DNA from: a virus
Taxonomy: Duplodnaviria > Heunggongvirae > Uroviricota > Caudoviricetes
Direction: 5' to 3' (one strand)
Length of the DNA: 64,000 bases
IMG/VR virus record: IMGVR_UViG_3300021400_000932
The position numbers and the translations under genes are program-made. The notes below the pieces were generated by a model. It was given only the letters and a program-made list of their open reading frames with translations, had not been told where the DNA came from and made no database searches. Shown here piece by piece: positions 4,415-57,884 of this stretch; the first letter of the stretch is position 1; every line of letters starts with the position of its first letter.

Positions 4415-4717
4415 TTATCCGAACTGCATTACATCGGTAACCCAAGATGTTGGTATGTTCTTAGAATATCCGAAAGCCTTACATTGAAAGAATTCGTAAC
4501 TATGGTCGAAAGTTTCTTTCACAAACTTCAGTTCGGTTTCCGGAATATCTATTTCGAAGACAACTATATCTTCATGGAAAGTCCTCACTCTAGCGAATTT
4601 AAGCGCATTGTCCATCGAATCCGCAAGATATACTATGCCATCACAACCGGTTCGGATTACTTCATCCTGAACTATCGAAATGGCATTAGTACATCCCGTA
4701 GCATGATAATATTTCAT
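4415..4717 (-). CDS. hypothetical protein
   Basis: 100-aa ORF with AGGTGA ribosome-binding site and AATCGTTAT motif upstream; no confident domain. Confidence 0.5.
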   Translation of the reverse strand: MKYYHATGCTNAISIVQDEVIRTGCDGIVYLADSMDNALKFARVRTFHEDIVVFEIDIPETELKFVKETFDHSYEFFQCKAFGYSKNIPTSWVTDVMQFG

Positions 4718-4793
4718 ATCATATCACCTACTATATAACATAACGATTGTAAAATCAATATTTTTGATGAATTTTTATTTCGATGTGTAGCGA

Positions 4794-5252
4794 TTAAGAT
4801 TTGGCTTTTGAATCATGAGAGAACTGGACAGCCACATTGTCGGGATTATAAACCCAAACTTTGTGGACATGTAATTCAGATTCAACATCAATCACAGCAT
4901 TTCTTACACCGTAACCAAGAGACTTGGAAGAAATTTTATTCTTGAACCACTCAATGATGCGGTCAGCCTCAACTTCGTCCATATCCCTCAGACTTCCGAA
5001 AATACTGACGGTGTAGGAATCAACGCTATTCTTTACCGGATTCACCCAAACACTCATTGTAAGACTTCCCTCGGAACCCATAGGGAGATAGTTTTCTGGA
5101 TGGTTATATGCATCCTCGAAATCCCCATGTTCCCAAGAGCATTCCTTACCGAAACTCTTCTCAAACATTTCTTTTGCTTCTTCGACAGAAACCTGATTGC
5201 GCCGAATATCATCAATACGGGCAATCGCTGCAACTTGTAACCACTGACTCAT
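4794..5252 (-). CDS. hypothetical protein
   Basis: 152-aa ORF in minus-strand array. Confidence 0.5.
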   Translation of the reverse strand: MSQWLQVAAIARIDDIRRNQVSVEEAKEMFEKSFGKECSWEHGDFEDAYNHPENYLPMGSEGSLTMSVWVNPVKNSVDSYTVSIFGSLRDMDEVEADRIIEWFKNKISSKSLGYGVRNAVIDVESELHVHKVWVYNPDNVAVQFSHDSKAKS

Positions 5253-5269
5253 AATATAACCTCCTTGTA

Positions 5270-5665
5270 TTACTCTTGATTGAAAAACGTATCTAACTTG
5301 TCTGCTATCGTCGGCCAGAAGCCTTTGATGTACTGCTTATACCCATCCGAAGTTTCCTTGAACTCGCCTTTACGTATCTTATCAAAATCAGACTTCCACA
5401 TCTCCGGAACATTGAAAAGATATATGCCATATGTGTTATCATCTTCGTAATCATAGGTACTAACGAAATTCGGGTCTTCGTAAAGGACTTCCTCACCGAA
5501 TCCACAATTTCGGTTATTACCGCCGACACGTGTAAAGATAGCGATTTTATCATCCTCAACAAAACAATCGCGGAATCTCGGATATTCTGATTCTCTACGA
5601 CCAAGCAAAGGCATGATAAGTATGCAAGCAGGATTAAACCCATTAACCATATTGTACAGACTCAT
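5270..5665 (-). CDS. hypothetical protein
   Basis: 131-aa ORF; AATCGTTAT motif and GGAAAGGTGG ribosome-binding site upstream. Confidence 0.5.
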   Translation of the reverse strand: MSLYNMVNGFNPACILIMPLLGRRESEYPRFRDCFVEDDKIAIFTRVGGNNRNCGFGEEVLYEDPNFVSTYDYEDDNTYGIYLFNVPEMWKSDFDKIRKGEFKETSDGYKQYIKGFWPTIADKLDTFFNQE

Positions 5666-5780
5666 AGATTGACCACCTTTCCTATCTTTCTAATACACAT
5701 AACGATTCCATCATTAAAAATGTCAACAAAAATAGAACCCCACCGCAAGCGATGAGGTTCTATTGAAATTTTTGTGCAAA

Positions 5781-6407
5781 TTATGCAGAAATTTCGTCTG
5801 CGGTAAGCGGAATTACGCGCGAAATGACGAATGGCACAGAAACTGTCAGGATGGCCCCTCCGGCCTGGTCCCCTGGACCTCTGTTCAAAGCACCAATCCA
5901 AGTACCAGGACAACGGAGACCATGACGCAGATTACCTTGTCCATCATAGCGAAGGAAGTAAACCTGCTTCATATACTCTGTAGGTAATCCCATTCTTTCG
6001 GTTGCAGGGTCATACACCTGACGTCTCCACTCTTCGAGAGCTCCGAGAACATTAGGCTCACAGAAGCAGTTAAGAGTCCAAGTGACATCATCGAAGTTGA
6101 CCTTAGACGGGAATTTGATTAGACCATTACCGTAGTGTACTGTGATGATATCTTCACTCTCTGAGATATCACCGATTTCTGCGGTAGACAGGGTTAATAG
6201 GTCGGAATTTTCTGTCGGGCTGGAACCATCCATGTTGTAGATTCTTACCTCAAAGTTGTTAGTGGTCAGAGGTACATAGTTATCTACACCCAACATATGG
6301 TTTGTACGTTTGTGTTTAGCGGAATTTCGCAAGGATTCCGTTGTTGTAGCTCTCCGGAAACTACCTTTTACCTTTCGATAAAAGACCAGACTATTTGTTA
6401 ATCTCAT
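5781..6407 (-). CDS. hypothetical protein (first gene of a long minus-strand operon)
   Basis: 208-aa ORF starting at the divergent intergenic region 6408-6840. Confidence 0.5.
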   Translation of the reverse strand: MRLTNSLVFYRKVKGSFRRATTTESLRNSAKHKRTNHMLGVDNYVPLTTNNFEVRIYNMDGSSPTENSDLLTLSTAEIGDISESEDIITVHYGNGLIKFPSKVNFDDVTWTLNCFCEPNVLGALEEWRRQVYDPATERMGLPTEYMKQVYFLRYDGQGNLRHGLRCPGTWIGALNRGPGDQAGGAILTVSVPFVISRVIPLTADEISA

Positions 6408-6757
6408 TATATTTTGAGATTGTGGATTTTTCGCTCACCCATTGGCTTGGCAGCTAACTCCCCCTCAAGGGGATAGTCGTTGAACGTATTTCATATTGGA
6501 TATATTACCCAACTTAGAAATTTCGCTGCTAAACGTCCCATTGTTACATCTCTTACTTTTTAATCTATCACGATTACTATTTCTAGTTTCGTTGTAGCAA
6601 AGAGCTCTTAGGAACTTCAAAGCAATTAACACACAGCACATATGTATCACTACATATGTGGGGCATCATCCACCCATGTACAGCGGAGAAAACATATATT
6701 TTATCTCACCTTTCTATAATATTTTTGAGTTTTTGATTGACTCATTGATATTATAGG

Positions 6758-7024: not shown

Positions 7025-8530
7025 ATGGAAAGATATGGATGTGTTGCCCCTGGAAATAACATAGCAGCTAGAAAGAAAGCGAAAGCTACTATGCAAGAAC
7101 GATTTGGTGTTGACTATGCTATGCAATCGGAAACTGTCAGAAAGAAATCTGTTGCCACCAATATAAAAAAGTATGGTGTCGAAAACCCCCAACAAAATGA
7201 AACAATCAAACAAAAAACCGCAGAAACAAATCAGGAACGGTATGGGGGCACCGGTTTTCAATCAGAAGAGTTGCTAAATAAGTATAAAGATACAATGATT
7301 GATATATATGGTGTTACTTCCCCCATTCAAAACCAACAGATTCGACAGGATATTATGAATACTATGCAAGACAGACATGGCGCTTCATGGTTCTCTCAGA
7401 GTGAAGAATATAAAGATAAATGTCATACTACTTCATTATCTAAATATGGTGCGGAACACTGGATGCAAACAGATGAGTGTAAGCAGAAATGCAAAGATAC
7501 TTGGCTGCGGAATTATGGCGTTGATAATCCATCGAAATCTCCGCTAGTAATCGCCAAGATAAAGCAGACATTTATTGATAAGTATGGGACAGATGGACTA
7601 TTGAATGTAGCTGAAATCCGAGAGAAGATACAGAAGACTTGCATTGAAAGATATGGTGTTCCCTATGGGGTATTGACACCACAAGCACGAAAACACAATG
7701 GTGCTATATCGAAGCAAAACAAACAAGTAATGAAATTATTAGATGATGCCGGTTTGAGCTATCAGTCAGAATTCAATCTTGAAAATAAATCATTTGACAT
7801 CAAAATTTTATATTCCAATATACTTATTGAGATTGACCCATCATACACACATTCAATAGAACTAACTCACTGGAATACCTCTGTTTCAGATACATACCAT
7901 ATAGAAAAGACTATGTTGGCAAACAAACATGGATATCAATGTTACCATATCTTCGATTGGGACGATAGGAAAAAATTTGTCAAATCTCTAACTAAGAAAA
8001 AAGATATAGAAACAGACCAATATTATATATCTGAAGTAGATGAATTGACTGCAACTGAATTTTATTATAAATATTCCATCTATATGCCGGATACCAAGTA
8101 TGCAATCCATATTGGAATATTCAACAAGCGGAATAATGCACTACTGCAAGTATCGTCATTCAGATTCATAGATATTTCTAACTGTCGGTGGCTGCTTTGT
8201 GCTAACAGCATCAAATTCCAAATTAATGTTATAGATGGACTGCATAATATCATAGACCACTTTGTTAAATACTATGACCCTGCTGAAATTGTCGGATTAT
8301 GTGATATAGCAAAATCAAATGGGATGATGTTTGAATCAATAGGGTTCAAAGAACTTTCAGAAGAACCACCACGTTTGATTTGGAGTCGATATCGGTCAGC
8401 AATTTCTAATGACAATGTAAAAAGTCAAACCAAATTGAATGATGAACAAATATACTCTATGATGATAAACAATAAATATCTGCCTGTATATGACTGTGGA
8501 TACAAAGTATATTCATTGAAACTCCGGTAA
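7025..8530 (+). CDS. repeat-containing putative site-specific/homing endonuclease: tandem ~30-aa K..(K/R)YGV.NP.Q repeats plus C-terminal PD-(D/E)xK-like (DUF559/Vsr-type) domain; N-terminal Zn-finger module probably starts at 6841
   Basis: At least eight repeats (QERFGVDYAMQSE, KKYGVENPQQNE, QERYGGTGFQSEE, IDIYGVTSP, SKYGAEHWMQ, RNYGVDNPSKSP, DKYGTDGLLN, ERYGVPYGV). The C-terminal FDIKILYSNILIEIDPSYTH resembles a DUF559 nuclease core. The in-frame upstream sequence 6842-7024 encodes CKFCGKEF...CPVCGKEY and has no start codon. Confidence 0.75.
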   Translation: MERYGCVAPGNNIAARKKAKATMQERFGVDYAMQSETVRKKSVATNIKKYGVENPQQNETIKQKTAETNQERYGGTGFQSEELLNKYKDTMIDIYGVTSPIQNQQIRQDIMNTMQDRHGASWFSQSEEYKDKCHTTSLSKYGAEHWMQTDECKQKCKDTWLRNYGVDNPSKSPLVIAKIKQTFIDKYGTDGLLNVAEIREKIQKTCIERYGVPYGVLTPQARKHNGAISKQNKQVMKLLDDAGLSYQSEFNLENKSFDIKILYSNILIEIDPSYTHSIELTHWNTSVSDTYHIEKTMLANKHGYQCYHIFDWDDRKKFVKSLTKKKDIETDQYYISEVDELTATEFYYKYSIYMPDTKYAIHIGIFNKRNNALLQVSSFRFIDISNCRWLLCANSIKFQINVIDGLHNIIDHFVKYYDPAEIVGLCDIAKSNGMMFESIGFKELSEEPPRLIWSRYRSAISNDNVKSQTKLNDEQIYSMMINNKYLPVYDCGYKVYSLKLR

Positions 8531-8847: not shown

Positions 8848-9198
8848 CTAAGGTTTTTCTTTTGCAACTTTTCTTTGTCGCCGGTAATCATAGAGAGCAT
8901 CAATCAGCTTCTTCTGGTCAGCGGTAGGGATATCTTTCTTTGCGATAATACCTCTGTCTGCATAAGTAAGAAGAGTTCTGCGAACAGATTCATACTTAGC
9001 ATAGGCCTCACAGTAAATATCTCTGGCTTCGTTCAGTTTCACAATTAGCTGATTGAGTTCTTCGATTTTCTGCTTTGCATTCTCAGTCGCCTTGCCATTA
9101 TCGGGGCTTACATTAGAAGAACCGCAGTATGGACAAAACTTCGGCTTGTTTGCAAATCGAAATCGCTTATTGCAGTCAGAACAGATAAATTGTTTCAT
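8848..9198 (-). CDS. zinc-ribbon / coiled-coil protein
   Basis: N-terminal CSDCNKRF...CPYCGS; AATCGTTTAT motif and GAGGTGA ribosome-binding site upstream. Confidence 0.55.
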   Translation of the reverse strand: MKQFICSDCNKRFRFANKPKFCPYCGSSNVSPDNGKATENAKQKIEELNQLIVKLNEARDIYCEAYAKYESVRRTLLTYADRGIIAKKDIPTADQKKLIDALYDYRRQRKVAKEKP

Positions 9199-9244
9199 TT
9201 AGTAGTCACCTCTTTTTGTCATTTTCTTATTATAATAAACGATT

Positions 9245-17505: not shown

Positions 17506-17958
17506 TCAGAAAAGCATCTCTTCAAGCCTGCGTGCTTTTTCCTCAGCTTGTTTCAGCCAGGTTTCATATCTATCCAGCCAATAACCTCGTTCCATAGAGA
17601 GCATTTCCAGCAACTCTTCATCGCTTGCATCGGACAAAGGCAAATGTCCGCTACAACGTGCAGACTCAGTAATTGTATCTGAATCAAACCAAACCCAACC
17701 CTCACAAACACCGACCAGGGTAAAGCCGTACTTTCCGAACAAATTTGGATATTTGGTATCCCAACCCAAGGCTGGGCTGCTCTGATTAACTGCATCAAGC
17801 AGTTCTTGTCTTGTCATATATTTCATAGTATTACTCTTCCAACAGACTCCCAATCGAAGCTGCGGTATTCTGAGCAAGTTTGACATCAACTTCACTCGGA
17901 ACCTGAATCCTATCGTCTGCAAGCAGAACAACCGAACCATAAACATCGCCATTTGCAA
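17506..17958 (-). CDS. hypothetical protein
   Basis: 150-aa ORF; its N-terminus overlaps the next gene, so the true start is probably internal. Confidence 0.4.
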   Translation of the reverse strand: MQMAMFMVRLFCLQTIGFRFRVKLMSNLLRIPQLRLGVCWKSNTMKYMTRQELLDAVNQSSPALGWDTKYPNLFGKYGFTLVGVCEGWVWFDSDTITESARCSGHLPLSDASDEELLEMLSMERGYWLDRYETWLKQAEEKARRLEEMLF

Positions 17959-18367
17959 TAATCGGAATCACCAAAGATGCCGGTCGGCAATTAGCATCGA
18001 ATGTCGGACGAACGACATTATCATGACTGTATGTGTATTGTCTTCTGCTTTCGATGACAGTTTCGAGTTCATTTGAGATAGTCTGTTCAATGTATTGTCG
18101 CTTACTTACTCCGGAAACAGCTACTACTGAGTCTCTGTCAGTAATCAAAACAGAGTGCGAACTTAGCGATTCAAGTACATTTGCAAACTTGCCGACAAAA
18201 GATGATAGAGAACTGATTGGATGATACTTCTTGTAAATAATAGCACCATCCTCAACATAGATTTCCAGAGGGTCACCCTCTCTAATCCTTAAAGAACGGC
18301 GTATCTCCTTCGGAATTATAACTCTCCCGAGGTCATCAATTCTACGAACAATTCCGGTTGCTTTCAT
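17831..18367 (-). CDS. spoVT: SpoVT-like transcriptional regulator (AbrB-type N-terminal domain + GAF-like C-terminal domain)
   Basis: 178 aa. N-terminal MKATGIVRRIDDLGRVIIPKEIRRSLRIREGDPLEIYVE closely resembles Bacillus SpoVT (recalled from memory, not database-checked). Length and two-domain layout also match. Confidence 0.75.
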   Translation of the reverse strand: MKATGIVRRIDDLGRVIIPKEIRRSLRIREGDPLEIYVEDGAIIYKKYHPISSLSSFVGKFANVLESLSSHSVLITDRDSVVAVSGVSKRQYIEQTISNELETVIESRRQYTYSHDNVVRPTFDANCRPASLVIPIIANGDVYGSVVLLADDRIQVPSEVDVKLAQNTAASIGSLLEE

Positions 18368-18379: not shown

Positions 18380-18709
18380 TTATTCAAAAGTTTCTGTCAA
18401 AGATAGAACATAAGTCAGCAGATTTTCGGCATCAATCAGCTTACACACTATGCCCATATCCTCTGCTGTTGTAACACTATGTCCATACCAAATTTCTGCT
18501 TTTTCTACATAGCGCTTTGCCTTAGCTAAGGAATCTCGGAAATCCTCAATGGTCTTAACTTCATCACATTTCTTGATTAAAATGCCATCCTCAGCAGCAC
18601 AAAATTCAAATTCATCATTTGTCCTAAGACCTAGTGACTTTCGGATATCTTCTGGAATCTGGATTCTTCCTGTAGCATCAATATGCCTTGTTACTGGTGC
18701 ATCTTTCAC
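18380..18709 (-). CDS. AbrB/MazE-family (SpoVT-AbrB swapped-hairpin) DNA-binding protein
   Basis: N-terminal TRHIDATGRIQIPEDIRKSLGLRTNDEFEF. Confidence 0.6.
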   Translation of the reverse strand: MKDAPVTRHIDATGRIQIPEDIRKSLGLRTNDEFEFCAAEDGILIKKCDEVKTIEDFRDSLAKAKRYVEKAEIWYGHSVTTAEDMGIVCKLIDAENLLTYVLSLTETFE

Positions 18710-21116: not shown

Positions 21117-21300
21117 CCACACGACTAAAGTCGTGGGATTCTTGCTTCAACGACTACGGCGAGCGTTTTACTCAAAGAGTTCAGCTCGACTTACACAATC
21201 TCCACAAGCTAGATTAAAGAGTTCCCGTGTGCCCCACGGTGCTCTGTGTATTAATAGAGGTTAAGCTATCATAGCCAACCCTTTAGTTAATATATTCATA
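21117..21300 (-). ncRNA. putative TnpB omega/right-end guide RNA (3' end of tnpB plus right end)
   Basis: Structured ~145-nt right-end segment downstream of the tnpB stop, ending in the terminal hairpin; by analogy to characterised IS605 TnpB systems. Confidence 0.4.
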
Positions 21301-22355
21301 GCGGCATTGACATCTCTGTCGTGATACTCTCCGCACTCGGGGCAAGTCCACTTTCGTATAGCTAAATTCTTAACTAATGGATTTTTATATCCGCACTTGT
21401 TACACAACTGACTGCTCGGATAGGTAGTAGGCACTCTCTGTACTGTCCTGCCGTACCAGGCAGCTTTGTATTCAAGCATTGTAAAAAACTTAGACCACGA
21501 AGCGGAGGATATACTTTTAGCCAGCTTGTGATTTTTGAGCATATTTTTGATTTTCAAGTCTTCTACACAGATTACTTGGTTTTCGTTAATCAGTGTAGTT
21601 GAAAGCTTTTGCAAAAAATCATTTCGCTGATTAGATACCTTCTCGTGGACTTTAGCTACTCTTAGTCGTTGCTTATCTCTGTTATGGGAGTCAACCTTCT
21701 TTCTGGAAAGTTTTCTTTGTTCTCTGCGTAATTTTCTTTGTGTTCGTTCTAACCTTTTGTGATTAGGTACAGAATTACCGTTACTGTCGGAATAGAAATC
21801 TTTTATGCCGACATCTATACCAATAACGGAATCTATTCTGTCTAAAGGTTGAGGTTCAAAGTCAATGTTAAGAACAGCAAAATACTTTCCTGTAGGTGTT
21901 CTCTCTACAGTAACATTATTAATATGACCTATATTCATTGACTGTTTGACTTTAATATAGCCAAGCTTTGGTAACTTTAGTTTATTGCCGTCAATGCGAA
22001 TATTATTACCTTGATTAAGAGTTCTGTAACTCTGGCGATGGTTATGTTTACTTTTGAAACAAGGATATCTGCCTAACTTCTTAAAGAAGTTTTGATACGC
22101 TCGGTCTAAATCCCTGAGAGATTGTTGCAGAGCAATACTATCAACTTCCTTAAGAAAGGAAAAGTCATCTTGCATTTTCATAGAGGTGAGCATAGCAGAA
22201 GTAGCGGTATAGTTAGCTTTATTACCTAACTTGTATTGTTCAATTCTGTATGCTAAACCTTTGTTGTAAATGAATCGAACACAACCAAGAGTGCGGTTTA
22301 TTATGTTTTGCTGTTCCCGATTGGGATAGATACGAAACTTTACACCTTTGTTCAT
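21261..22355 (-). CDS. tnpB: TnpB (IS605 OrfB-family RNA-guided nuclease)
   Basis: 364 aa; RuvC-like motifs ([10 protein letters not shown]) and C-terminal zinc finger CNKCG...CPECG. Confidence 0.85.
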
Positions 22356-25353: not shown

Positions 25354-25434
25354 ATTGTATATAACGATTATAAAAATAGAATTACCGCCTACAATCCGAA
25401 ATTGGAAAGTAGACGGTATTGAAAATATTTTGTA

Positions 25435-30390: not shown

Positions 30391-30394
30391 ATTC

Positions 30395-32604: not shown

Positions 32605-32671
32605 ATATAACGATTGTCGATATTAAATTGTAAGGTATTTGTGCAACTTCTACAACAAACTTGCGAACAAA

Positions 32672-39689: not shown

Positions 39690-39705
39690 CTATATCTCCC
39701 CTACA

Positions 39706-41303: not shown

Positions 41304-43625
41304 TTATCTTCTTATATATGGTCCGAACACCGATGGCATTCGGCTTTTTGGTGTTGATGGTCGTCCATTTACACTCGAAATTACACTTGCCATATTGTTG
41401 ATAGATGGCTTAATTTGGTCTTGATGTTGGATATGTGTCCAGCAAGCACCGCAAAGAGCATCAGAAAGGTCCTTTGAACCATTCTGTGGGTGGTCTATGC
41501 GATTATTCAATCTTTGTAATTTGACAAGTTCATCCTCTTGTTTTTGATTCTTAATGAGCTCCAATCTCTGGTCTTGCAATAAATTACGCAAACCAATGTA
41601 TGGGTCTTCCGATACATCGACAGAAATCTTTTCAACTGCAAATCCTTGCTGTGCTAAAGTTTCTCGCACGTAGGATGATTGAAATTGGTCCGTAGATATT
41701 ATGTTTACATTAAATCCGGTTCTACGAAGCCAAATCATAAAGTTGATTACTTTTTGGAATGACATCCTATCACCGGATGGAGCTTCAATACCAACCTGGA
41801 ATACCTGTCGATAGAATGGTAACATCACTCGTCGTTCGGTATCCAAATCAAGTACATTCTTCATACCATCTTGAACTACTCCGCTAATACCTATTCTATC
41901 GGATACCTCAGCAAAGTCTATGTGGATATTCATGGGTAATGATTTAATGTGCTTATCCACTACTTCAGGATGACAATGATTTTCGATAGTATCATTATCC
42001 CGTATGCCGATGACCAATATATCTTCAAAGAATGGATTTTTCCTTGCTGAAGTAACATTGGGTGTGATTGAATCCTGTGTAATGAATCCCATAGCACCGG
42101 TCACAGATATGCCAGCTATATCTCTTAGAGCTATATCATAATCGGCAAGGAAGTTAGTTTTGAAATCTTTGGGAACTGCAAGAACTCGATACCCAGATTT
42201 TCGGTATGCTTCCAAATGCTGTTCATCCTCATTTTCTTTCGGTATGACAAAACCTCGTTTATATCTGTCACCGACAGTAATATAGAACTTTTCCGGACTG
42301 AACATCTCTTTCGGAAGAACTTCCCACTGTGGTTTATCTACAAGATACATATTAGAGTTTCCGGCATTTAACTGAGTTTCAATATGTTCTGATAGATAAT
42401 CGGAATCTGTGTTCTTAGACGATGAAGAAATCAACTTACCATACACTTCACCACCAAGTTTGAATGTACCGGTGATACGAGCATGGACGGTGTTATACAG
42501 ATTTTTCATATGCTGTTTAGCTATATTGATATCCTTAACACCGGAACGACTGAAGTTGACCTCATCCATAAGACAGTTATGTGAAACCAAATTGGAATTA
42601 GCACAAAGTATGAAATTATGATAAGGCTGTACATTTATCACATCATACACCGGAATGGGGATATCATAAATCTTCTTGGACATCGCCACTATGGTAGGAT
42701 TTGCACCGTTAACTGAAAGCAATTCGGCACCAATGGTTAAATTACCAATCGGTCTATACTCGCCATCCGATTTCAACATCAAGTGGTCCGAAGTGCCCTC
42801 TATAATTGAACCATCTGATAAATGTAATTTAATAGTGGATGTAACATATCGAGTACATCTAATTTCAGCCTCTGTAGGTATGCAATCTTCACCAGAATAC
42901 TGATAAATGGTAACTGTGTGATTGGAACAGTATTCCAATGTCTTTACTCCTTCAGAAGTAAGTATCTTTGTATCTCCCACAAGACAGGCCCAAACCTGCA
43001 TTCCGAGTACATGCGCTGAATCGGATGCCGGTATTATATCAATCTTTCCACCCTCTGGTAGATAGACATAATTGCTTGCACTGTTGCTAAATTTACCGTG
43101 GTCATTAAACCAGGGACTTTCCCTCAGAGTTGTTTGAAATTCTCGGAATGCAACACCAGCAGCCAAATCCTTTGTCAAATTCGCAAAGGCGATAGTAAAT
43201 TTGGATACCTCTTTCTTCTTAAAATAAGAATGCGGGTCCTTATATATCATCAGCCGGTACAGCATATATGCCACAATGGAAACCGCAGTAGATGACTTTC
43301 CTATACGAGTTGCACCCGACAATATTATTTCAAAAAACTTGTTTCCATTATTAAATATATCGCTGAGAGTGTGTTTCCAAAATGGATAAACAGACTCACC
43401 TTGATTGTTGGTATTTCCTAAATATCTCGGATTGCATAAAAATTCATCTATAGATACAGGAACTTCCTTGAAATCAGAAAGCCATAATTGTTCCAGTGTC
43501 TGAGAGTATCCCTTATCCACCATCTCTTGAAGAATAATTTTGAGGGTGTTCTGTTCCATCTTAGAACAACTTGCATACACAGTTTGTATCCGATGAAGCA
43601 CATCCTCATAATCAATCTCCTTCAT
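41304..43625 (-). CDS. terminase large subunit containing a mini-intein
   Basis: Walker A ILSGATRIGKSSTAVS. The intein runs CLVGDTKIL ... VSHN, followed by C+1 and LMDEVNF (Walker B region). A C-terminal nuclease region follows. Confidence 0.8.
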   Translation of the reverse strand: MKEIDYEDVLHRIQTVYASCSKMEQNTLKIILQEMVDKGYSQTLEQLWLSDFKEVPVSIDEFLCNPRYLGNTNNQGESVYPFWKHTLSDIFNNGNKFFEIILSGATRIGKSSTAVSIVAYMLYRLMIYKDPHSYFKKKEVSKFTIAFANLTKDLAAGVAFREFQTTLRESPWFNDHGKFSNSASNYVYLPEGGKIDIIPASDSAHVLGMQVWACLVGDTKILTSEGVKTLEYCSNHTVTIYQYSGEDCIPTEAEIRCTRYVTSTIKLHLSDGSIIEGTSDHLMLKSDGEYRPIGNLTIGAELLSVNGANPTIVAMSKKIYDIPIPVYDVINVQPYHNFILCANSNLVSHNCLMDEVNFSRSGVKDINIAKQHMKNLYNTVHARITGTFKLGGEVYGKLISSSSKNTDSDYLSEHIETQLNAGNSNMYLVDKPQWEVLPKEMFSPEKFYITVGDRYKRGFVIPKENEDEQHLEAYRKSGYRVLAVPKDFKTNFLADYDIALRDIAGISVTGAMGFITQDSITPNVTSARKNPFFEDILVIGIRDNDTIENHCHPEVVDKHIKSLPMNIHIDFAEVSDRIGISGVVQDGMKNVLDLDTERRVMLPFYRQVFQVGIEAPSGDRMSFQKVINFMIWLRRTGFNVNIISTDQFQSSYVRETLAQQGFAVEKISVDVSEDPYIGLRNLLQDQRLELIKNQKQEDELVKLQRLNNRIDHPQNGSKDLSDALCGACWTHIQHQDQIKPSINNMASVISSVNGRPSTPKSRMPSVFGPYIRR
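42576..42986 (-). other. mini-intein (137 aa, residues 214-350 of the terminase)
   Basis: Block A CLVGDTKIL, block B GTSDH (TxxH), terminal blocks VYDVINVQPYHNFILCANSNLVSHN followed by Cys+1; no homing-endonuclease domain. Confidence 0.8.
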
Positions 43626-44682: not shown

Positions 44683-44884
44683 TCAAAATCACCAAATTTC
44701 GACAAGTTTCATTTACAAGCGCACTAAGATTAACAACAGTTATGCGATTCGCACTCAACAAATGTGAGAACTCTCTACTTATGTTGCTATCTTGCACTTT
44801 ATATATGTAGGTTTGATAGAATTTCCAAAACTCCGTAGTATCGTGTTTCTCCGATTCAACTACAGCCTTAATTGTTTCTATCAT
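44660..44884 (-). CDS. hypothetical protein
   Basis: 74-aa ORF. Confidence 0.35.
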   Translation of the reverse strand: MIETIKAVVESEKHDTTEFWKFYQTYIYKVQDSNISREFSHLLSANRITVVNLSALVNETCRNLVILNGRKSNN

Positions 44885-45188
44885 TATAGACCGCCTTTAT
44901 CTTATCCACTAGTTCAGATAATCCATCGGGTATCTCAGATTTAGACTTCTTTATATAGACGTCATAGAAACACTGTAAAGCATCTATTGACTTCGATAAT
45001 TCATCTAATGTGGGAATCCGTATCATTTCGCCGCCGGAATACTTACACAGCTTTATCAAAGATTCATGTCCTACAATAGAAAACAATTCAGGCAACCAAC
45101 TGTATTCAGGAACATCATGAAGCGGTGGCATTAACCCCAGCAGATAATGAAAGTCTAATTCTTCAGTAACTGGGAGTTTCATCGTCAA
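44868..45188 (-). CDS. hypothetical protein
   Basis: 106-aa ORF. Confidence 0.4.
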   Translation of the reverse strand: MTMKLPVTEELDFHYLLGLMPPLHDVPEYSWLPELFSIVGHESLIKLCKYSGGEMIRIPTLDELSKSIDALQCFYDVYIKKSKSEIPDGLSELVDKIKAVYNDRNN

Positions 45189-46139: not shown

Positions 46140-46571
46140 TTAACCCTCATCTTCCTCAGTCTTTGGTGGGTTACCCCTATCCGGCATATACACATAAGGA
46201 GTTTCCGGATTGTCGTCTTGGATTATATATGCGATATACACCGATTCAGAATAACCATTCTCCGGTATAGGTTCAAACACCAATTTATATATGTGCATAC
46301 CGGAAACTAAATCAAGTATGCCGGAATCAATTCTGACCCATGGATGTGGATAATCCTGCATTACAGTATCTGCACTAAATTCAACTTCTTCGTACTTCTG
46401 CTTAGAAACATCTATAATGGACTTTAAAGCCAAAGCACTTACATATGGCGGAAGATTTACCCACACACCGGATGACAAAGCATCTTTGTTAAATATCTTG
46501 GTGTTTATATTAATTTTATCATATTCACAAGCAATAAGCAAGCTATATGGAATCATTCTGCGTCTCTCCAA
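46140..46571 (-). CDS. hypothetical protein
   Basis: 143-aa ORF. Confidence 0.4.
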   Translation of the reverse strand: MERRRMIPYSLLIACEYDKININTKIFNKDALSSGVWVNLPPYVSALALKSIIDVSKQKYEEVEFSADTVMQDYPHPWVRIDSGILDLVSGMHIYKLVFEPIPENGYSESVYIAYIIQDDNPETPYVYMPDRGNPPKTEEDEG

Positions 46572-46849
46572 GAAATTATATGCGGAGCATTGTCAATGGC
46601 ATATGAAGAAGTTGACTTATATTCATATCCCTCTTCTTTCAGTTTCTTAACCATCTTATCGGAGAGCTGTGTTATGCACATAACTTCAGTTCTTCCTGCA
46701 TTAGCCGCATCATTTATCAATCTGGCAACCATCATTTCTTCAACTGTATCTACATAAACTCTGCTTTCTGCCGTAGTTCTCGATTCAACAGCCGAATGCA
46801 AAACAGTATCAAAAGCCACACAAATCACTCCATTTATAAAATCATACAT
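46553..46849 (-). CDS. hypothetical protein
   Basis: 98-aa ORF. Confidence 0.4.
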   Translation of the reverse strand: MYDFINGVICVAFDTVLHSAVESRTTAESRVYVDTVEEMMVARLINDAANAGRTEVMCITQLSDKMVKKLKEEGYEYKSTSSYAIDNAPHIISWRDAE

Positions 46850-46924
46850 AAATATAAAAGGTTATAATTTGTGTGGCTTTTGGTATTGATATTTTTAGTT
46901 GTAATTTTAATTGTTTTGATATGC

Positions 46925-50900: not shown

Positions 50901-51923
50901 TTACTTCCTCTTTGAATTACAGAGGTATGTAATAGCTACCTCTTGCAGATAATTTGTTGTTTTGAGTTCGTGGTTCATCTTAATAAGAACATTAGCCAAA
51001 CGCAAACACAAAGTAGCATGCGCACTACCATACTTAGAAATTTTATCCTGGTAGTATGCCGGTATCATAGTCTTGTTAATATCTTGAAGAAAGATATATT
51101 TTACAATCTGACACACAAATGAATGAAATCCCTCAAACCACCGAACAAAATTTGTTCCCGAATCATATATGTCATTGATAACTCCGATTACCGCTGCATC
51201 ATCTTTCTTTGCGACACCATTCAACAATACGAAGTAATCATCATAGTTAGGCAAATCAAGTGCAACCGAAAGATTCTCTAAGGTGATTTCAGATGAATAT
51301 GCTAAAGCTCTATCCAACAACTGAATGGAAGCTCGCATACCACCTTTACCCAACTTAGCAATATAACGCAGCGCATTTTCATCATAATGAATGTTTTTAC
51401 CCTCTGCTATTTCGCTATCACAGATATATTTCAGTCTGTTAGTAATTCCATCCAAACTAATTTTAGATAATCTGAATGTCTGCACTCTCGACAAAATTGT
51501 TTCCGGTATCTTCTCAGGGTTGGTGGTACAGAAAATAAATACCGATTTAGCCGGACTTTCTTCCAACACCTTTAGCGCAGCCTGCCAAGCCGCCTTGGAA
51601 AGAGCATGTACTTCATCAAGAATAAACACTTTCCATTTTGTTCCGACAGGATATTGTTGAGCCTGCACTACTATGTTTCGCATATCCTCTACACCGCTAT
51701 TCGATGCAGCATCCAGTTCTATCGGTTCACCCTTACCATCATTAAGGATATTACCAATAACACGAGCAATAGTAGTCTTGCCGATACCGGCGGCACCAAC
51801 AAACAAGAAGTTCCTATTTGTCAAAGTAGGCTGACTACAAATGTTTTTAACTATATCTATAACAGCCGCTTGTTCTGTAATATCATCGAAAGATTTTGGT
51901 CGATATTTTGTTGCAAGATTCAT
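50901..51923 (-). CDS. clamp loader ATPase (DnaX gamma/tau N-terminal-like / RFC large-type)
   Basis: FLFVGAAGIGKTTIARVIG, ILDEVHALS, ILSRVQTF sensor motif. Confidence 0.7.
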   Translation of the reverse strand: MNLATKYRPKSFDDITEQAAVIDIVKNICSQPTLTNRNFLFVGAAGIGKTTIARVIGNILNDGKGEPIELDAASNSGVEDMRNIVVQAQQYPVGTKWKVFILDEVHALSKAAWQAALKVLEESPAKSVFIFCTTNPEKIPETILSRVQTFRLSKISLDGITNRLKYICDSEIAEGKNIHYDENALRYIAKLGKGGMRASIQLLDRALAYSSEITLENLSVALDLPNYDDYFVLLNGVAKKDDAAVIGVINDIYDSGTNFVRWFEGFHSFVCQIVKYIFLQDINKTMIPAYYQDKISKYGSAHATLCLRLANVLIKMNHELKTTNYLQEVAITYLCNSKRK

Positions 51924-51968
51924 TTACTCGCACCCCCACACCTTATATAAACGATTCTTGTTGGCAAA

Positions 51969-52793
51969 TTACCACTCTTTACACTTCTTAAAATATGGAC
52001 ATCTTGAAGAACTGCACCACACATCACCGCTCGGTAGTTTTGGCGGAGCGATACAAGCATCAGCTAGTTTCTGAACCTCTGAGAACATATTCCATGTTTC
52101 AATCATCTGCGGGTAAGATACCTCTATCTCAAAACACTTGATATTGCCATACTGTCTATCCTGATATACAAACAATACCTTGTGTACTTTTAGAACAGTA
52201 GCATAACCAATAGCTTGTTCAACATGCTGAGGTTTTGGTTCAGTAAGAGAGTCAAAACTACTGTAATCGGAAGTTTTAATCTCGATTAGATAGTATTCAC
52301 CATTAATTTTAATAAGACCATCGCAAGAAAATCTAATGGGTGGACTAACTATCTCTACCTGCGTCTCAAATTCTGTTTTATTTACTGTGTATTCATAGTC
52401 TGGATTCAATTCAGATAAATAATCCTCAACATCTATCCAATTATCACCGTACATCTCAGATAGATTTGATTGGATTATCTTATGACAAGCTGTTCCTACA
52501 TCTGCAGTAAAATTTAGTGTTAAATCCGGTGCTTCATCTTTGTCCGGTAAAACACCTCTGAGCCTAAACCAAGAGATGCGCCTACAGCGAATGTAGCTCA
52601 TGGCGAAAGTCCTGTGTTTAGGCTCTAGGCTTTTAGCACGTATTTTGTTTGTTACAAAATTATTATAATCAGATAAAAATTTGTAGCTTGTCTGTGAATT
52701 GAATGAAACTATGCGATTTAATCCTGCCGGTCTAAACCCCATAGTCCACCCCTTAGTTGCTAAAGGGTGCCAGCACAACGGACATAGTATCAT
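51969..52793 (-). CDS. PD-(D/E)xK exonuclease with C-terminal Cys cluster (Cas4/RecB-nuclease-like)
   Basis: DGLIKINGEYYLIEIKTSD (D...ExK) and C-terminal CSSSRCPYFKKC plus N-terminal CPLC cysteines. Confidence 0.55.
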   Translation of the reverse strand: MILCPLCWHPLATKGWTMGFRPAGLNRIVSFNSQTSYKFLSDYNNFVTNKIRAKSLEPKHRTFAMSYIRCRRISWFRLRGVLPDKDEAPDLTLNFTADVGTACHKIIQSNLSEMYGDNWIDVEDYLSELNPDYEYTVNKTEFETQVEIVSPPIRFSCDGLIKINGEYYLIEIKTSDYSSFDSLTEPKPQHVEQAIGYATVLKVHKVLFVYQDRQYGNIKCFEIEVSYPQMIETWNMFSEVQKLADACIAPPKLPSGDVWCSSSRCPYFKKCKEW

Positions 52794-53874
52794 CGCTGAA
52801 TACTACTCCATCTACCACCGAACCGGTCTCTTCATCGAACTTCGGAGCAATTCTAACAGATGCATCGAAACGAGAAAGAACCTGCCTTAAATCACCAGAC
52901 TTAAATGTGCAACTCCAAGGTGCATCCACTTCGGTCTCTGTCGGAATTTCCTTCTTACCCTTGTTTTCCTCAATAATGATGCACTTATCGGCAATAGTCA
53001 TAGACACAGGACTATCGGAAGATGCGGCCAAGAGAGAAGTCTGTGACAAGAACTTGCGAAGTTCTGCTGTAGTGACAAGAACACCATCATTGGACGGGGT
53101 AAGTGCATAGAAGATTACCTCATGATGATATTCACCGACACCCTCATCTGCTTCATACTCAGGGGTAAATTCCGTAAGATAGTCATAACCATCGGTTGAT
53201 AAGTGAATAAGATATGAGCTCGGCAACTTGATTAGTTCCGCACCTTCAGGAAGAGCGGCGAACAGATTAACAATAGTCGAAAGCAACAGACAGGTATCTG
53301 CCAATGCACCTTTCTTGGAATGGGTGAAGATACCTTTATCCACGTCACCAACAAGAACATCACCGTCAGCACCAACCCAAACTCGTGTATAGATTGGATG
53401 CTTCAACTCAGTAGCAAGCGCAAATAGCTGGTGGTCTCTTACAAACTTCCAACTCTCCGTATCAATGGCGGTCGAAACATACTGCTGTGTAAAGGTTTTA
53501 GGATTAGCAGGAACGCCGAAAGAAGAATCTGCATCATCAGACATCTGAGCCAGCTTAAATTTCGACTTTCCGGAATGCATAATTACTCCGCCCTGCACAA
53601 ACTCAATGGTGGTGACATCCGCATCGAAAGTGGTTACAAGGTTGCGGAATGTAATGCTGTCCAAGATGACAGATACTGGACCAACCTCATCGCCAGAACC
53701 ATGCAGGGTCAGTTCTGTCACAATTCTCGATGCTTCGATATTGATTTTCAATGCGGATTCAGTTGCGGTCAGCTTTACAACTCGGCTGCGACTTACAAAC
53801 TGAGAGATATTACTTTTGATAATACCTAACTCGATGGCTGTCTTCAAAGGCTTTGTACTACATGTGAATTTCAT
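52753..53874 (-). CDS. dnaN: DNA polymerase sliding clamp (beta-clamp/DnaN-like)
   Basis: 373 aa; N-terminal MKFTCSTKPLKTAIELG resembles the DnaN start; located between clamp loader and polymerase. Confidence 0.6.
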   Translation of the reverse strand: MKFTCSTKPLKTAIELGIIKSNISQFVSRSRVVKLTATESALKINIEASRIVTELTLHGSGDEVGPVSVILDSITFRNLVTTFDADVTTIEFVQGGVIMHSGKSKFKLAQMSDDADSSFGVPANPKTFTQQYVSTAIDTESWKFVRDHQLFALATELKHPIYTRVWVGADGDVLVGDVDKGIFTHSKKGALADTCLLLSTIVNLFAALPEGAELIKLPSSYLIHLSTDGYDYLTEFTPEYEADEGVGEYHHEVIFYALTPSNDGVLVTTAELRKFLSQTSLLAASSDSPVSMTIADKCIIIEENKGKKEIPTETEVDAPWSCTFKSGDLRQVLSRFDASVRIAPKFDEETGSVVDGVVFSDDTMSVVLAPFSN

Positions 53875-53901: not shown

Positions 53902-56799
53902 TTAATTTTTGTTGTGATTGGATGGTAGCTTAGGCTTAACATATCCACGCTCAACCCTCTGCTGAATGTCAGAAATGAAATCAGATTTCGGTATATTGAA
54001 CCTCACACAATAGTCATCTATGCTATCCGACAATTCTTGTGTCCATATACCATTGACGCCATGGGCAGCATCACCTCTCGGCTTCTCGCCATTTTCATCA
54101 TTAAACAATGGCAACACATATTCCATTTCGCAAATATGTGCTTGCACCCACTTAATATTGTCTTCCGACATATTATCTAACGATTCCGGTTTTTGATGCT
54201 TGTATGCGATAGAATTTACACTCAACCCATACCACCTATAAGTTATCTCCAAGTCGCAGTTGATGGCAAATGGTAAGAAACTACCGGCATTAACCATACA
54301 GTCAGTAAGAACCTTGCCGGCTTCTTCTGCATACTCCGCAGGAACTTCAGCTATCAGCTCGTCATGTACAGGAACAAGGAATCTACCACCAAACCTCTGC
54401 CAATCCTTATTATTGATTAGACTAATAATAGCCATTTTTGTTAGTTCGGATGCACTGCCCTGAATAATTGAGTTAACGCACTCTCGTGAGGCATCATTGA
54501 TTTTAGACCGATTGTCTATAACCTTGATATGTTCTTCATACAATTCATTGTTTCTTCTGTATCGCTGACCGTTGTATTTGAATGAAGCATACTCTTTTGT
54601 CAGAGCATCAACAATCCTTGCAGGAATAACCTCTTTGTTATGAAGAGTAGATGGGTCTAATGGGTCAATATCTGGATTAACATATCCAGCCATAGGTTCA
54701 AAAGCGAATGGGGGTAACATCATATCCGGAATATGGCGACGTCTGCCTAAAATGGTTTCCACATAGCCTTTTTGCTTGGCAGTAGCCTGTGCAGAAATCA
54801 TTAACTGACGAAGATTAGGAAAAGCAGCCATAACGGAATCATATACCTTTTGGGCTTCTTTGGTCTTTTCATCATCAGACATTGTATCGTCACTACCAAA
54901 CAACTGTTCTGCGATTGATGGGATTGAACGACCGTAGCTGACGCCGAGTACGATGCTTTTTGCTTGCGTTCTCCTTGCCTTACCCTCTTTTTGATATTCA
55001 CCCGTCACAGGATGATTCTCCAAGCACTCTTCATAAGGAACATTAAAAGCTATACTTGCGATAGTAGAATAAATGTCCTTACCTTCAGAAAATGCTTTAA
55101 TCATTGCGGGGTCTTTTGCTACAAACCCAAGAATTTTGGGTTCCTGCTGTGAGTAATCACTGCCGATAAGAACATATGGTGGTGTTCTGTGCCGTAAGAC
55201 ATAATGAATATCGGATGACACCTCATCCGCTCCTATGTAAACATAAGCATTGGGTTCATTTATAACTTTTGACTTTACAGGGAAATATCGTATCGGGGCA
55301 TTTGTTTTATTACCCAACCGAATTTCCACCAAGTCACCGCAGACAAGATTCTTTACTTGTTTCTCTTCACCAGATTCAAGATAAACTACTGAAAGGAGAT
55401 TCAATTCAATTCTCAGCATAGTTCCCTCAATAGTACACTCTCCGTCAGTTTCCATCTCAGGTGTTGCCCTAAACATATGTCTTATGTCTGTATGCTTACT
55501 TGGGATATTTTGGAGATTCGGGGATTGGGAACTCATACGACCGGTAGCTGCACCGATGGATTTGAATGATGCGTGAATTCTGTTGTCGCTTGCTACGGAA
55601 TTAGGGAGTTTTTCAGTAAAGGTTCCTATAAGGGTAGACAAACTCCTAACCTTCAGAAGTTGTTTGGCTTCCGGCATATTGATTTCACCGACAACTTCTT
55701 TTCCTGTTGGTTTCTTACCCTTATTCTTACCAACGGTAGGAACAGGGACCTGCATTAAGGTGTATAATAAATATTTAGTGTGTACTACACTGTCCGGATT
55801 GAAGTCTGCACCGGTTTTGAATGGTCTTGCCGAATTGTTTGGTATATCCATCTCGTCAATGAGTTTTTGAACCATATCTCGCATAGTAGCAAGTTCTTTT
55901 TCATAATACTCATTGTATCGCTTTGTAATGTATGAAGCTACATCCTTTTCGATATACATTCCCGTTCTGTGCAGTTCGGCACAGGCTTTAATCATGGGAA
56001 TCTCAATACCCCATACGATATCAGCAATATGTTCAAGATGGTGGCTTATACACTTAGGGTTAGTCTTAGTAACATATGGTAACTGCCACAGAAACAGTTC
56101 ATAAGTAATCCTAGCATCATTGGCCGCATACAGCTTTGCAACATCCGGCTTGCAGTATGGAAAAGTCTTGGCATCAAAAAAGTCAGAGAATTTCTTGGGG
56201 TCACCCTCACCCTTTAACACATACTTGGAATACAGTTGTTTCAATCCATTATGCGGTTCATTTTCTTTGATAACTCTCCAAGCCAAGATTACATCATAAT
56301 AACAAGCAGGGATAAAATCTACTTTGTAATCTTTGTAAAGCATCGCAATATCATAATCCGCATTTGCAAAGATACATTTTACTTTATTATCAACAAGCCG
56401 TTGGAATTCTTCTTGACATTCCGCATAGGATAACTGATTAGACCTGTAGTTTTCCATTATAGGAACCTTGTGGAAGTTTGGAATATAACATTCAACACCG
56501 CCAGGGTAATACAGGGATGAACCAACAATAGTATCTGACACTTTATCCAGACCTGTGGTTTCCGTATCTATTCCGGCATACCCAGCATCTATACATCCGT
56601 CAATATACTCATGTAGCTGTTCCTTGGAAGTGATAAGAATTGCTTCGGAATCCTTAAAGTACTCCCTTACTGTTTCTTCCATAGCGGCTATTTTATCAAC
56701 CGTACTGTTGGAAATGGCTGGTTTTGTTGCTAACTTCTGCTTGCTTTTGGCCGCTACCGCATCTATTGCCGCCATAGAAGCCGAATCAAACAAAGCCAT
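53902..56799 (-). CDS. polA: family A DNA polymerase with 3'-5' exonuclease domain
   Basis: Exo I GIDTETTGLD, Exo II FANADYD; motif A DYSQQEPKIL, motif B RRTQAKSIVLGVSYG, motif C LVPVHDEL. Confidence 0.85.
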   Translation of the reverse strand: MALFDSASMAAIDAVAAKSKQKLATKPAISNSTVDKIAAMEETVREYFKDSEAILITSKEQLHEYIDGCIDAGYAGIDTETTGLDKVSDTIVGSSLYYPGGVECYIPNFHKVPIMENYRSNQLSYAECQEEFQRLVDNKVKCIFANADYDIAMLYKDYKVDFIPACYYDVILAWRVIKENEPHNGLKQLYSKYVLKGEGDPKKFSDFFDAKTFPYCKPDVAKLYAANDARITYELFLWQLPYVTKTNPKCISHHLEHIADIVWGIEIPMIKACAELHRTGMYIEKDVASYITKRYNEYYEKELATMRDMVQKLIDEMDIPNNSARPFKTGADFNPDSVVHTKYLLYTLMQVPVPTVGKNKGKKPTGKEVVGEINMPEAKQLLKVRSLSTLIGTFTEKLPNSVASDNRIHASFKSIGAATGRMSSQSPNLQNIPSKHTDIRHMFRATPEMETDGECTIEGTMLRIELNLLSVVYLESGEEKQVKNLVCGDLVEIRLGNKTNAPIRYFPVKSKVINEPNAYVYIGADEVSSDIHYVLRHRTPPYVLIGSDYSQQEPKILGFVAKDPAMIKAFSEGKDIYSTIASIAFNVPYEECLENHPVTGEYQKEGKARRTQAKSIVLGVSYGRSIPSIAEQLFGSDDTMSDDEKTKEAQKVYDSVMAAFPNLRQLMISAQATAKQKGYVETILGRRRHIPDMMLPPFAFEPMAGYVNPDIDPLDPSTLHNKEVIPARIVDALTKEYASFKYNGQRYRRNNELYEEHIKVIDNRSKINDASRECVNSIIQGSASELTKMAIISLINNKDWQRFGGRFLVPVHDELIAEVPAEYAEEAGKVLTDCMVNAGSFLPFAINCDLEITYRWYGLSVNSIAYKHQKPESLDNMSEDNIKWVQAHICEMEYVLPLFNDENGEKPRGDAAHGVNGIWTQELSDSIDDYCVRFNIPKSDFISDIQQRVERGYVKPKLPSNHNKN

Positions 56800-56825
56800 A
56801 TCTAATAACCACCTTTACAATAGAA

Positions 56826-56868
56826 ATAAAGGGCAAGACTTCTGTTGATAGGAAGACCTTGCCCTTGA
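56826..56868 (-). terminator. probable intrinsic terminator after the SSB gene
   Basis: GGGCAAG...CTTGCCC 7-bp stem followed (minus-strand sense) by a TTTATTTCTATT tract. Confidence 0.45.
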
Positions 56869-56881
56869 TGTTTATGACAGA

Positions 56882-57727
56882 TTAAAACCCAACATTGTCG
56901 GGAATGTCATCCCCTAAACCGAGTGCATCAATGTCCACGTCATCCATACTTGGCAGACCAACCTTACCGGCAGTAGGAACATCCATAACCTCAGCCGAAA
57001 AAGAAGCGGGGACGGGTGCTGCGGGAACTGTTGGAGCAGGTGCAATAGGTGCAACATATTGCGGAGCACTCACAATCGGAACAGCACTCTCAGGCGGAAC
57101 TGCATTCGACTGGTGTACGGTTCTCGGAGTCGCACCGTATGTCTGTCGCGGAGAAGTATTCTGAGAACTCTGCTGTAAGAGGATTCTGCGGAGCTCTGTT
57201 GCCGAATAGTCTTTGCAGATAATATCATAGGACTCCGGAAGAGAAATCTTATACTTGGCCATAATGTCATCATATGGACCAACAAGATTTTCTTCGAGTA
57301 CATTGATTGTATATCTTGTACCACGGTCGTTGGGAACTCCATAACGAGTAATACGGAAAATAAATCCGGACGGGTCGGGATAGTTCTTGAACACATCGTT
57401 CATGAGCTGTGCCTGGAACTTAGTAGACCTATCCCAGAACTGAATCTTCGGTCCCTTGAAATCGGGGTCGGAATGAGAAAGCACCAGCATCGGAATGAAA
57501 AGGTTTGTCTGGACGCGAATACCCTTTTCGCAAGCAGGGCAACCATCTTCCAAACACTGGACATATCCGTTGTACTCCGCCGACTTAACATAGTGGGTGT
57601 CCGCAATCAGAACATCTGCGGTGCTACGATATAGGAAGATTACATCCGCATAGTCCTGGTCATTGACCAGTCTAAAGGAGTTTCCGTATCTCTGTTCGTT
57701 GTATTCTGTCATTTTCTTGAATGCCAT
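56882..57727 (-). CDS. ssDNA-binding protein, T4 gp32-like (zinc-binding) with acidic C-terminal tail
   Basis: H...CLEDGCPAC zinc motif (gp32-type His/Cys3) and C-terminal DIDALGLGDDIPDNVGF acidic tail. Confidence 0.55.
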   Translation of the reverse strand: MAFKKMTEYNEQRYGNSFRLVNDQDYADVIFLYRSTADVLIADTHYVKSAEYNGYVQCLEDGCPACEKGIRVQTNLFIPMLVLSHSDPDFKGPKIQFWDRSTKFQAQLMNDVFKNYPDPSGFIFRITRYGVPNDRGTRYTINVLEENLVGPYDDIMAKYKISLPESYDIICKDYSATELRRILLQQSSQNTSPRQTYGATPRTVHQSNAVPPESAVPIVSAPQYVAPIAPAPTVPAAPVPASFSAEVMDVPTAGKVGLPSMDDVDIDALGLGDDIPDNVGF

Positions 57728-57884
57728 AAATCCACTCTCCTTAAAAATCTTTGTGTTTTGATATGTTTTAGGTGACAGTCGGCATATCTACTCTGTCACA
57801 TATTATATAACGATTGTGTATTTCAGATTGTACACAAAAATGGCGGTTTTGCAAAAATTAGTAATTGGTAATTTTTTCCTTATT

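Follow-up and report, generated by a model that had tools for sequence, protein, structure and literature searches.

The stretch of viral DNA analyzed here, which we call the window, is the 64-kb portion of IMG/VR record IMGVR_UViG_3300021400_000932 (Caudoviricetes; 64,000 nucleotides). It forms part of a genome of ~185 kb, of which the window and 9 kb upstream of it were inspected. Its genes lie nearly all on the minus strand, and their content is that of a large myovirus. Genes for a tail sheath (32672-35551), a portal (38175-39689), and a terminase (41304-43625) are found together with replication genes for a family A DNA polymerase (53902-56799), an SSB (56882-57727, with the DNA polymerase gene next), clamp-loader subunits (including 50901-51923), a UvsX-like recombinase, a primase, and a DnaB-like helicase, and eight tRNA genes are clustered at 175-4400. 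The subject of this study is a short element that recurs in the intergenic DNA, AATCGTTATA, referred to below as the class I core. An original prediction, made from the window sequence, had described it as AATCGTT(T)AT, a candidate phage-specific promoter or operator upstream of at least nine minus-strand genes.

A megablast search with 24 kb against cultured phages returned no match, the nearest DNA polymerase match in a protein search was 35% identical, and a search with the sheath protein led to remote T4-superfamily phages only, so that there was no annotated genome or transcriptome to borrow from. The sheath homologs delimit a large family of uncultured phages with contigs of ~140 to 250 kb that also carry a T4-type portal. 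The family members are myoviruses, and AGGAGG-type ribosome-binding sites together with phage genes for SpoVT- and AbrB-like proteins lead us to believe that their hosts are probably Gram positive and possibly spore forming. The SpoVT-like regulator (17831-18367) combines an AbrB-type N terminus with a SpoVT_C domain, and a second AbrB-like protein is encoded at 18380-18709; both genes hint that the host may be a spore-forming Firmicute and that the phage may interfere with its regulation.

All nine minus-strand sequences quoted in the original prediction were found in the window, with AATCGTT at 4742-4748, 5701-5707, 9238-9244, 25363-25369, 27182-27188, 32107-32113, 32609-32615, 51950-51956, and 57809-57815; the positions that had been attached to them are mostly those of the downstream start codons rather than of the motif. 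A tenth intergenic copy (2518-2524) had been overlooked, and five more minus-strand copies lie within coding sequence (7098, 15947, 23754, 54179, and 61788). The total of 16 is barely above chance (11.1 +/- 2.8 expected from dinucleotide shuffles, 5 of 100 of which reach 16) and is insufficient support alone. The literal pattern AATCGTTWAT, which matches just two copies with an inserted T, is not significant. We therefore tested position and strand in place of the count. The gene strand carries 15 of the 16 copies; of these 15, 10 are noncoding, while noncoding DNA amounts to 3.5 kb (5.5%) of the window. In an unbiased test, AATCGT, AATCGTT, and ATCGTTAT ranked first among 6-, 7-, and 8-mers for intergenic enrichment (hypergeometric P of ~1e-9 for AATCGTT). 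As had been claimed, the motif stands 20 to 160 nt from a start codon in the window, with a purine-rich ribosome-binding site next.

Confirmation was sought in relatives. The sheath alignment was used to fetch 51 IMG/VR loci, and several further loci came from assemblies. Five loci (L001 to L004 and L006) are too near the window, whole intergenic regions being conserved, and our conclusions rest on the more distant ones; the test set, from which the window and these close relatives were left out, held ~50 loci (885 kb) with sheath identities of 37 to 61%. In this set, AATCGTTA was the most enriched noncoding gene-strand 8-mer (69 of 87 copies noncoding, 33 loci, P = 2e-51), ranking above the best Shine-Dalgarno-type words. 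A separate count of noncoding copies gave 71 in sense and 2 in antisense orientation, where a first-order Markov model of that noncoding DNA predicts 2.25 and reached at most 6 across 200 simulations. Orientation follows the gene on the two-strand contigs L057 and L060; on L057, which is the window's own contig continued beyond coordinate 64000, divergent motif copies face divergent genes. Likewise, the motif is kept while its flanks diverge in relatives with 40 to 60% identical sheath proteins. Enrichment and orientation in relatives exclude chance or AT-rich composition, which had been named as a result that would speak against the motif. The single plus-strand copy, at 31187-31193, is present as described; the antisense promoter suggested for it does not hold up, its CG being TG in L002 and L003 and the base being absent in L004, and this copy is probably nonfunctional. 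An extra T occurs in three window copies (9238, 32107, and 51950) and in ~9% of family sites; the L004 ortholog of the 32107 copy has the standard form, AATCGTTATA.

The consensus of 82 nonredundant sites reads g-AATCGTT-A(88%)-T(77%)-A(67%), followed by five weakly constrained positions and then by T at position 16 (a pyrimidine in 71 of 82) and a purine at position 17 (72 of 82). The matrix of these sites contains no information for a -35 region between -45 and -13, and nothing but a weak T-run at -12 to -10 stands out upstream, consistent with the tails of preceding terminators. The pyrimidine-purine (Y-R) step at positions 16/17 is probably the transcription start. Since the start is then read at the purine of position 17, ~7 nt past the core, the core would fall at about -16 to -7. 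The next open reading frame (ORF) starts at a median distance of 53 nt (range, ~10 to >200 nt). Strong hairpins with U-runs end 8 to 25 nt 5' of the copies at 5701, 25363, and 27182 (z, -4 to -7). Downstream, a significantly stable hairpin is found at 16% of sites and begins at positions 15 to 17 in 9 of 13 cases; window examples are the copies at 57809 and 32609.

The genes behind these sites give an impression of what the element may control. Sites were scored with a position weight matrix (PWM), and all those named here are on the minus strand. A core of the form AATCGTTATA lies 5' of the SSB gene at 57806-57815 (PWM score, 20.5), where a hairpin, GTGACAG...CTGTCAC, begins at motif position 17. 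The minority variant AATCGTTTAT is located at 51947-51956, 26 nt 5' of the clamp-loader gene 50901-51923, and again at 9235-9244, 5' of 8848-9198, and a further variant, AATCGTTTAG, is found at 32104-32113, 5' of 31862-32080. Three sites lie just past a terminator hairpin: AATCGTTATA at 27179-27188 (PWM score, 21.9), ~155 nt 5' of a Band_7/flotillin-like gene (25435-27027); AATCGTTATA at 25360-25369 (PWM score, 19.9), 5' of 25159-25320; and AATCGTTATG at 5698-5707, 5' of 5270-5665. The form AATCGTTATG recurs at 4739-4748, 5' of 4415-4717 and the tRNA cluster. At 2515-2524, AATCGTTATA is positioned 20 nt 5' of a gene for an acyl-carrier-protein-like product (2253-2498); this gene, which encodes a PP-binding domain, lies amid the eight tRNA genes. 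Thus, class I in the window precedes the SSB gene and then the polymerase gene, clamp-loader, Band_7, acyl-carrier-protein-like, and small unknown genes, and the tRNA cluster. In the distant relative L059 it is also found 5' of the SSB ortholog and of a queuosine-type gene cluster.

Two matches within coding sequence are of uncertain status. One, a high-scoring class I match at 54176-54185 (PWM score, 18.8), falls toward the 3' end within the DNA polymerase gene, where it may serve the beta-clamp-like gene 52753-53874 as an internal promoter; L059 has a class I copy 41 nt 5' of a 373-residue gene orthologous to the latter. The other, the class I-like AATCGTTCTA at 61785-61794 (PWM score, 17.1), falls in a small ORF (61636-61812) and lies 5' of the primase gene. 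A last intergenic site, AATCGTTATA at 32606-32615, stands 3' of the sheath gene and 5' of 32149-32556 and is directly followed by a 14-bp hairpin and T-run (32576-32606). L005 keeps this arrangement of core and hairpin, with both arms changed and pairing preserved. Because a transcript starting at position 17 would lose part of the 5' arm, selective termination is conceivable here, and one might speculate that the hairpin stops sheath transcripts while letting transcripts from its own promoter through. After the sheath gene, the distant relatives L015 (~12200), L030 (~8050), and L051 (~12320) have a class I site followed by a similar G-rich sequence, GGGACAGC(A/C)C... with no ORF, which may be a small structured RNA. 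On L057, at 5150-5400 (~3.7 to 4 kb past window coordinate 64000), about seven palindromic repeats of GAAATTCCCAACTTTTCGGGAATTTC lie between two divergent class I promoters; this arrangement resembles a replication origin or a series of operators.

Class I is one of three promoter-like classes in the family, along with TTGACA-N17-TATAAT and a class II, (A)AACCTTnTATA. Promoters of the TTGACA-N17-TATAAT type, the class read by host sigma-A, occur in noncoding DNA of the family, several of them perfect. These canonical promoters coexist with class I in the same phages, so the host uses the standard consensus and class I cannot simply be equated with its promoter. A sigma-70 scan over 24 to 36 kb showed no enrichment and found one class I site, weakly. 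The sole strong sigma-A-type promoter in the window, TTGACT-N16-TATAAT (59348-59375, minus strand), lies 5' of the sigma-like gene described below. Class II is represented by 60 nonredundant noncoding sites in the relatives and has its Y-R step 5 to 6 nt past TATA; when aligned on that step, it spans about -16 to -6, with the leading AA and the TATA part common to class I. In the window, again on the minus strand, two tandem class II motifs (AACCTTATATATT, 35620-35666) lie 5' of the tail sheath gene, one (ACACCTTATATAA, 39699-39718) lies directly 5' of the portal gene, and one (TAACCTTTTATAT, 46845-46864; PWM score, 22.6) lies 5' of 46553-46849. Many copies in the relatives are located ~100 to 300 nt 5' of the sheath gene. 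Because it is found 5' of portal and sheath genes, class II is probably a late promoter class. The intergenic region 30277-30394, past a terminator, contains a near-miss of each class: TAACCTATAATA, which is class II-like, and GGAATTGTTATAATCG, which is class I with a C-to-T change that gives a textbook TGn-TATAAT extended -10.

A candidate trans-acting factor is encoded behind the sigma-A-type promoter by a minus-strand orphan gene (58263-59261; 332 residues). The N-terminal 112 residues of its product fold like sigma domain 2, and the N terminus resembles sigma region 2 by eye (DEEDGIECVLQYLEKN...YIYSVSWNSMSCLRR); in a full-length model, the C-terminal part gives winged-helix matches. Homologs are confined to this phage family, in which an exhaustive profile search collected 242 clusters at 50% identity, mostly of 200 to 290 residues, the size of small alternative sigmas. 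The L059 ortholog (38% identical) is again found behind a sigma-A-type promoter, TTGACT-N17-TATAAT, and that of L060 has a sigma-A-type promoter between palindromic operators, as well as a class I copy. At the sequence level, the family could not be connected to sigma factors by any method: Pfam searches with the 332-residue protein and 133 relatives found no sigma model, PHROGs and PDB sequence profiles gave none either, and hhalign against Escherichia coli RpoE gave the correct region-2 register with a P of only 0.07. Nearly all window ORFs were also scanned with PHROG and Pfam, in part after being joined by glycine-serine linkers (to which "Serglycin" matches are due as artifacts); these scans revealed no sigma, RNA polymerase, MotA/AsiA, gp55, or gp33, and no RNA polymerase is annotated in the 9 kb upstream. 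No paralog of the sigma-2-like domain was found by hhalign among the window ORFs, which leaves the window without a candidate late factor.

Two further proteins were considered and rejected. A 280-residue protein of L005 (15710-16552) matches sigma-70 region 4 and, weakly, the RNA polymerase alpha C-terminal domain, and AATCGTTATAC, a hairpin, and a T-run are found 5' of its gene; as the class I factor it was discarded, being unique to L005 among the fetched loci. A Mor-like reading of 44868-45188, based on a GGEMIRIP motif seen by eye, had no Pfam support.

We propose that AATCGTTATA forms the core of promoters specific to these phages and devoid of a -35 element, and that this class belongs to a middle tier and is read by a phage sigma-like protein in a cascade of the SPO1 type; we put the probability of this reading at roughly 0.7. 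The suggestion in the original prediction of a phage-specific promoter not of the sigma-A type, possibly a middle promoter for a phage sigma, gains support from the strict gene orientation, the conservation, and the lack of a -35 element. It is further strengthened by the Y-R step, by terminators upstream and ribosome-binding sites downstream, by the coexisting canonical promoters, and by the orphan with its sigma-domain-2-like part. The analysis establishes the motif with its enrichment, orientation, conservation, and architecture, as well as the sigma-2-like fold of the protein; from such features we infer promoter function, the start site, middle timing, and the pairing of protein and site. 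In the proposed cascade, host sigma-A holoenzyme would transcribe a few early genes, including the sigma-like gene 58263-59261. The sigma-like protein would then take the place of sigma-A on the host core RNA polymerase and read AATCGTTATA as a single extended element near -10, mainly via its domain-2-like module, which would turn on replication-stage and accessory ("middle") genes. A further factor would subsequently activate the AACCTTnTATA promoters of virion genes. A more specific idea is put forward more tentatively, at slightly less than even odds: the sequence-orphan family, whose 242 clusters escape both Pfam and PHROGs, would confer specificity for a new 10-bp class without a -35 element, and this class would be the middle of three tiers (sigma-A type, then AATCGTTATA, then AACCTTnTATA) in a widespread phage family known only from uncultured members.

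Several observations weigh against this proposal. The start site and the timing of class I are both deduced from sequence. The three window copies with an extra T score poorly against the PWM, and some relatives have no AATCGTT near the sheath gene, showing just looser nnnCGTTATA words. Furthermore, the 332-residue protein is tied to class I no more than to class II, and the ~185-kb genome, of which 64 kb plus 9 kb was covered, could code for a different factor or for a phage RNA polymerase at some other place. The looser nnnCGTTATA words, like the upstream element AAAACTGAAA that is added in the L060 lineage, would fit lineage-specific coevolution of site and factor.

Of the alternatives, the one that survives best, though we consider it unlikely, is that class I sites are unusual extended -10 promoters of host sigma-A, G(-14)-n-TATA with a phage-typical upstream AATC, for which no phage factor would be needed. 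A start at position 19 would align the core as G-14, T-12, A-11, T-10, and A-9, and TTGACA-like hexamers are found 12 to 13 nt 5' of the copies at 5701, 9238, 32609, and 57809. Across the 82 sites, however, -35 information is absent and the T at -7 is not conserved, and TC takes the place of the expected TG in the motif, whose invariant bases are T-C-G-T. The existence of perfect TTGACA-N17-TATAAT promoters as a separate class in the same genomes and the sigma-70 scan, which was unenriched and found its one class I site weakly, likewise speak against host recognition.

Somewhat less probable still is recognition by a phage RNA polymerase, single subunit or noncanonical multisubunit, encoded outside the window. 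Short elements without a -35, at a fixed distance from the start, would suit such an enzyme, as would the TATA part shared by two classes, and ~120 kb of the genome lies beyond the inspected DNA. This would have to be reconciled with the lack of any RNA polymerase-like protein in the scans of the window ORFs and in the annotation of the 9 kb upstream, and with the presence of a sigma-2-like protein. Moreover, T7-type promoters are conserved in the region just before +1, whereas here the conserved core is just 10 bp long and the region before +1 is not conserved.

The operator that the original prediction had offered beside a promoter finds little favor in our data. Suitable DNA-binding regulators are at hand, since the window encodes, besides the SpoVT-like (17831-18367) and AbrB-like (18380-18709) proteins, a winged-helix HTH_39 protein (30395-30715). 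The core is, however, asymmetric and nonpalindromic, is present in one copy per region, keeps to the orientation of the gene (71:2), and stands at a fixed distance from the Y-R step, and most sites have no other evident promoter; an operator is therefore improbable. As for T4 RegA, its site from systematic evolution of ligands by exponential enrichment (SELEX) is AAAAUUGUUAUGUAA, which bears a resemblance to the motif. Least credible of all is that the motif acts in RNA, as a RegA-like translational operator in the 5' untranslated region or as a processing site, for although it lies on the sense strand 5' of ribosome-binding sites, its distance to the start codon varies from ~10 to >200 nt, it is often located right past a terminator where little upstream transcript would arrive, and no Rfam family was found at motif sites.

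The proposed phage-specific promoter class has its parallels in two well-known phages, SPO1 for the cascade and T4, with gp55, for the promoter architecture. SPO1 uses sigma-A for early, gp28 for middle, and gp34 for late transcription, with a small diverged phage sigma from an early gene redirecting the host core RNA polymerase (PMC13401047). SPO1 and the present family are unrelated, but both comprise large phages of the virulent type with a (here probably) Gram-positive host and with distinct promoter classes per gene set, and in our case a sigma-A-type promoter is found 5' of the sigma-2-like gene and class I 5' of replication genes. A first difference is that class I has no -35 box in the pooled sites, although one lineage, L060, carries an additional AAAACTGAAA upstream, and a second is that no similarity in sequence to any sigma model could be detected for the candidate factor. 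The middle and late promoters of SPO1, in contrast, are bipartite (AGGAGA/TTTnTTT and CGTTAGA/GATATT, respectively). We rejected a reading of CGTTA as a -35 box of the SPO1 late type with GATAT downstream, as three copies are only 20 to 26 nt from the start codon.

Like the gp55-dependent late promoters of T4, class I consists of a single element near -10 without a -35. The T4 element, recognized by gp55 together with gp33 and the gp45 clamp, is TATAAATA, compared with AATCGTTATA for class I; the PHROG and Pfam scans of the window ORFs gave no homolog of gp33. Unlike T4 late promoters, class I is found 5' of replication genes (SSB and clamp-loader) and accessory genes rather than virion genes, and AACCTTnTATA of class II is the closer functional analogue of the T4 late promoter. 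As in extended -10 and extracytoplasmic function (ECF)-type promoters, the information is contained in ~10 bp (-16 to -7) in which the TATA-like part comes just after a G or CG, and CGT(T)ATA of class I resembles the sigma-W -10 element, CGTATA. The TG of extended -10 promoters at -15/-14 is lacking, however, and CGT is present but is not accompanied, as it is in ECF promoters, by an AAC-containing -35 box ~16 nt upstream, the expected position showing neither AAC nor a C. Neither type of element has anything that corresponds to the AATC part. Unlike the sigma-A -10 hexamer TATAAT, class I conserves TATA only, the next two positions being mixed A/T in the 82 sites.

The genomes show several other features of mobile or accessory DNA. 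An IS200/IS605-type element lies within the phage genome (TnpB-like gene, 21261-22355; Y1 transposase gene, 22365-22781), and L003 has a TnpB copy directly 5' of the sheath gene. A group I intron detected with Rfam (6366-6681, minus strand) adjoins a tail-tube-like ORF (5781-6407), and a 501-residue homing endonuclease is encoded on the other strand (7025-8530); an intron probably interrupts the tail tube gene. The IMG/VR contig L001, which is 99% identical to the window, has a 1.3-kb insertion in the DNA polymerase gene and a 0.9-kb insertion near the primase gene (L001 5089-6000 and 11076-12415 versus window 55191-55534 and ~60606). These are probably an intein, intron, or homing element that one genome has and the other lacks. 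The polymerases of L059 and L060 show intein signatures. The queuosine-type (7-deazaguanine) cluster of L059 (3832-8254) encodes QueF, QueC, PTPS, a radical SAM enzyme, and GTP cyclohydrolase I and lies in part behind a class I motif; its presence suggests that this lineage modifies its DNA.

That phages can have promoter classes of their own and sigma cascades is long established, and our finding extends this known biology. Neither the consensus nor the phage family nor the orphan sigma-like family seems to have been described before; a literature search of full texts for AATCGTTATA retrieved unrelated papers only. For a large phage family without a cultured member, the three searchable promoter-like classes provide a regulatory map, by which the genes of hundreds of metagenomic genomes with mostly unannotated proteins can be sorted into sets that are probably early, middle, or late. 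In addition, an orphan protein family is flagged as a likely new branch of phage sigmas with a defined candidate DNA target. If this is true, it would constitute another minimal sigma, besides T4 gp55, that reads a single element near -10.

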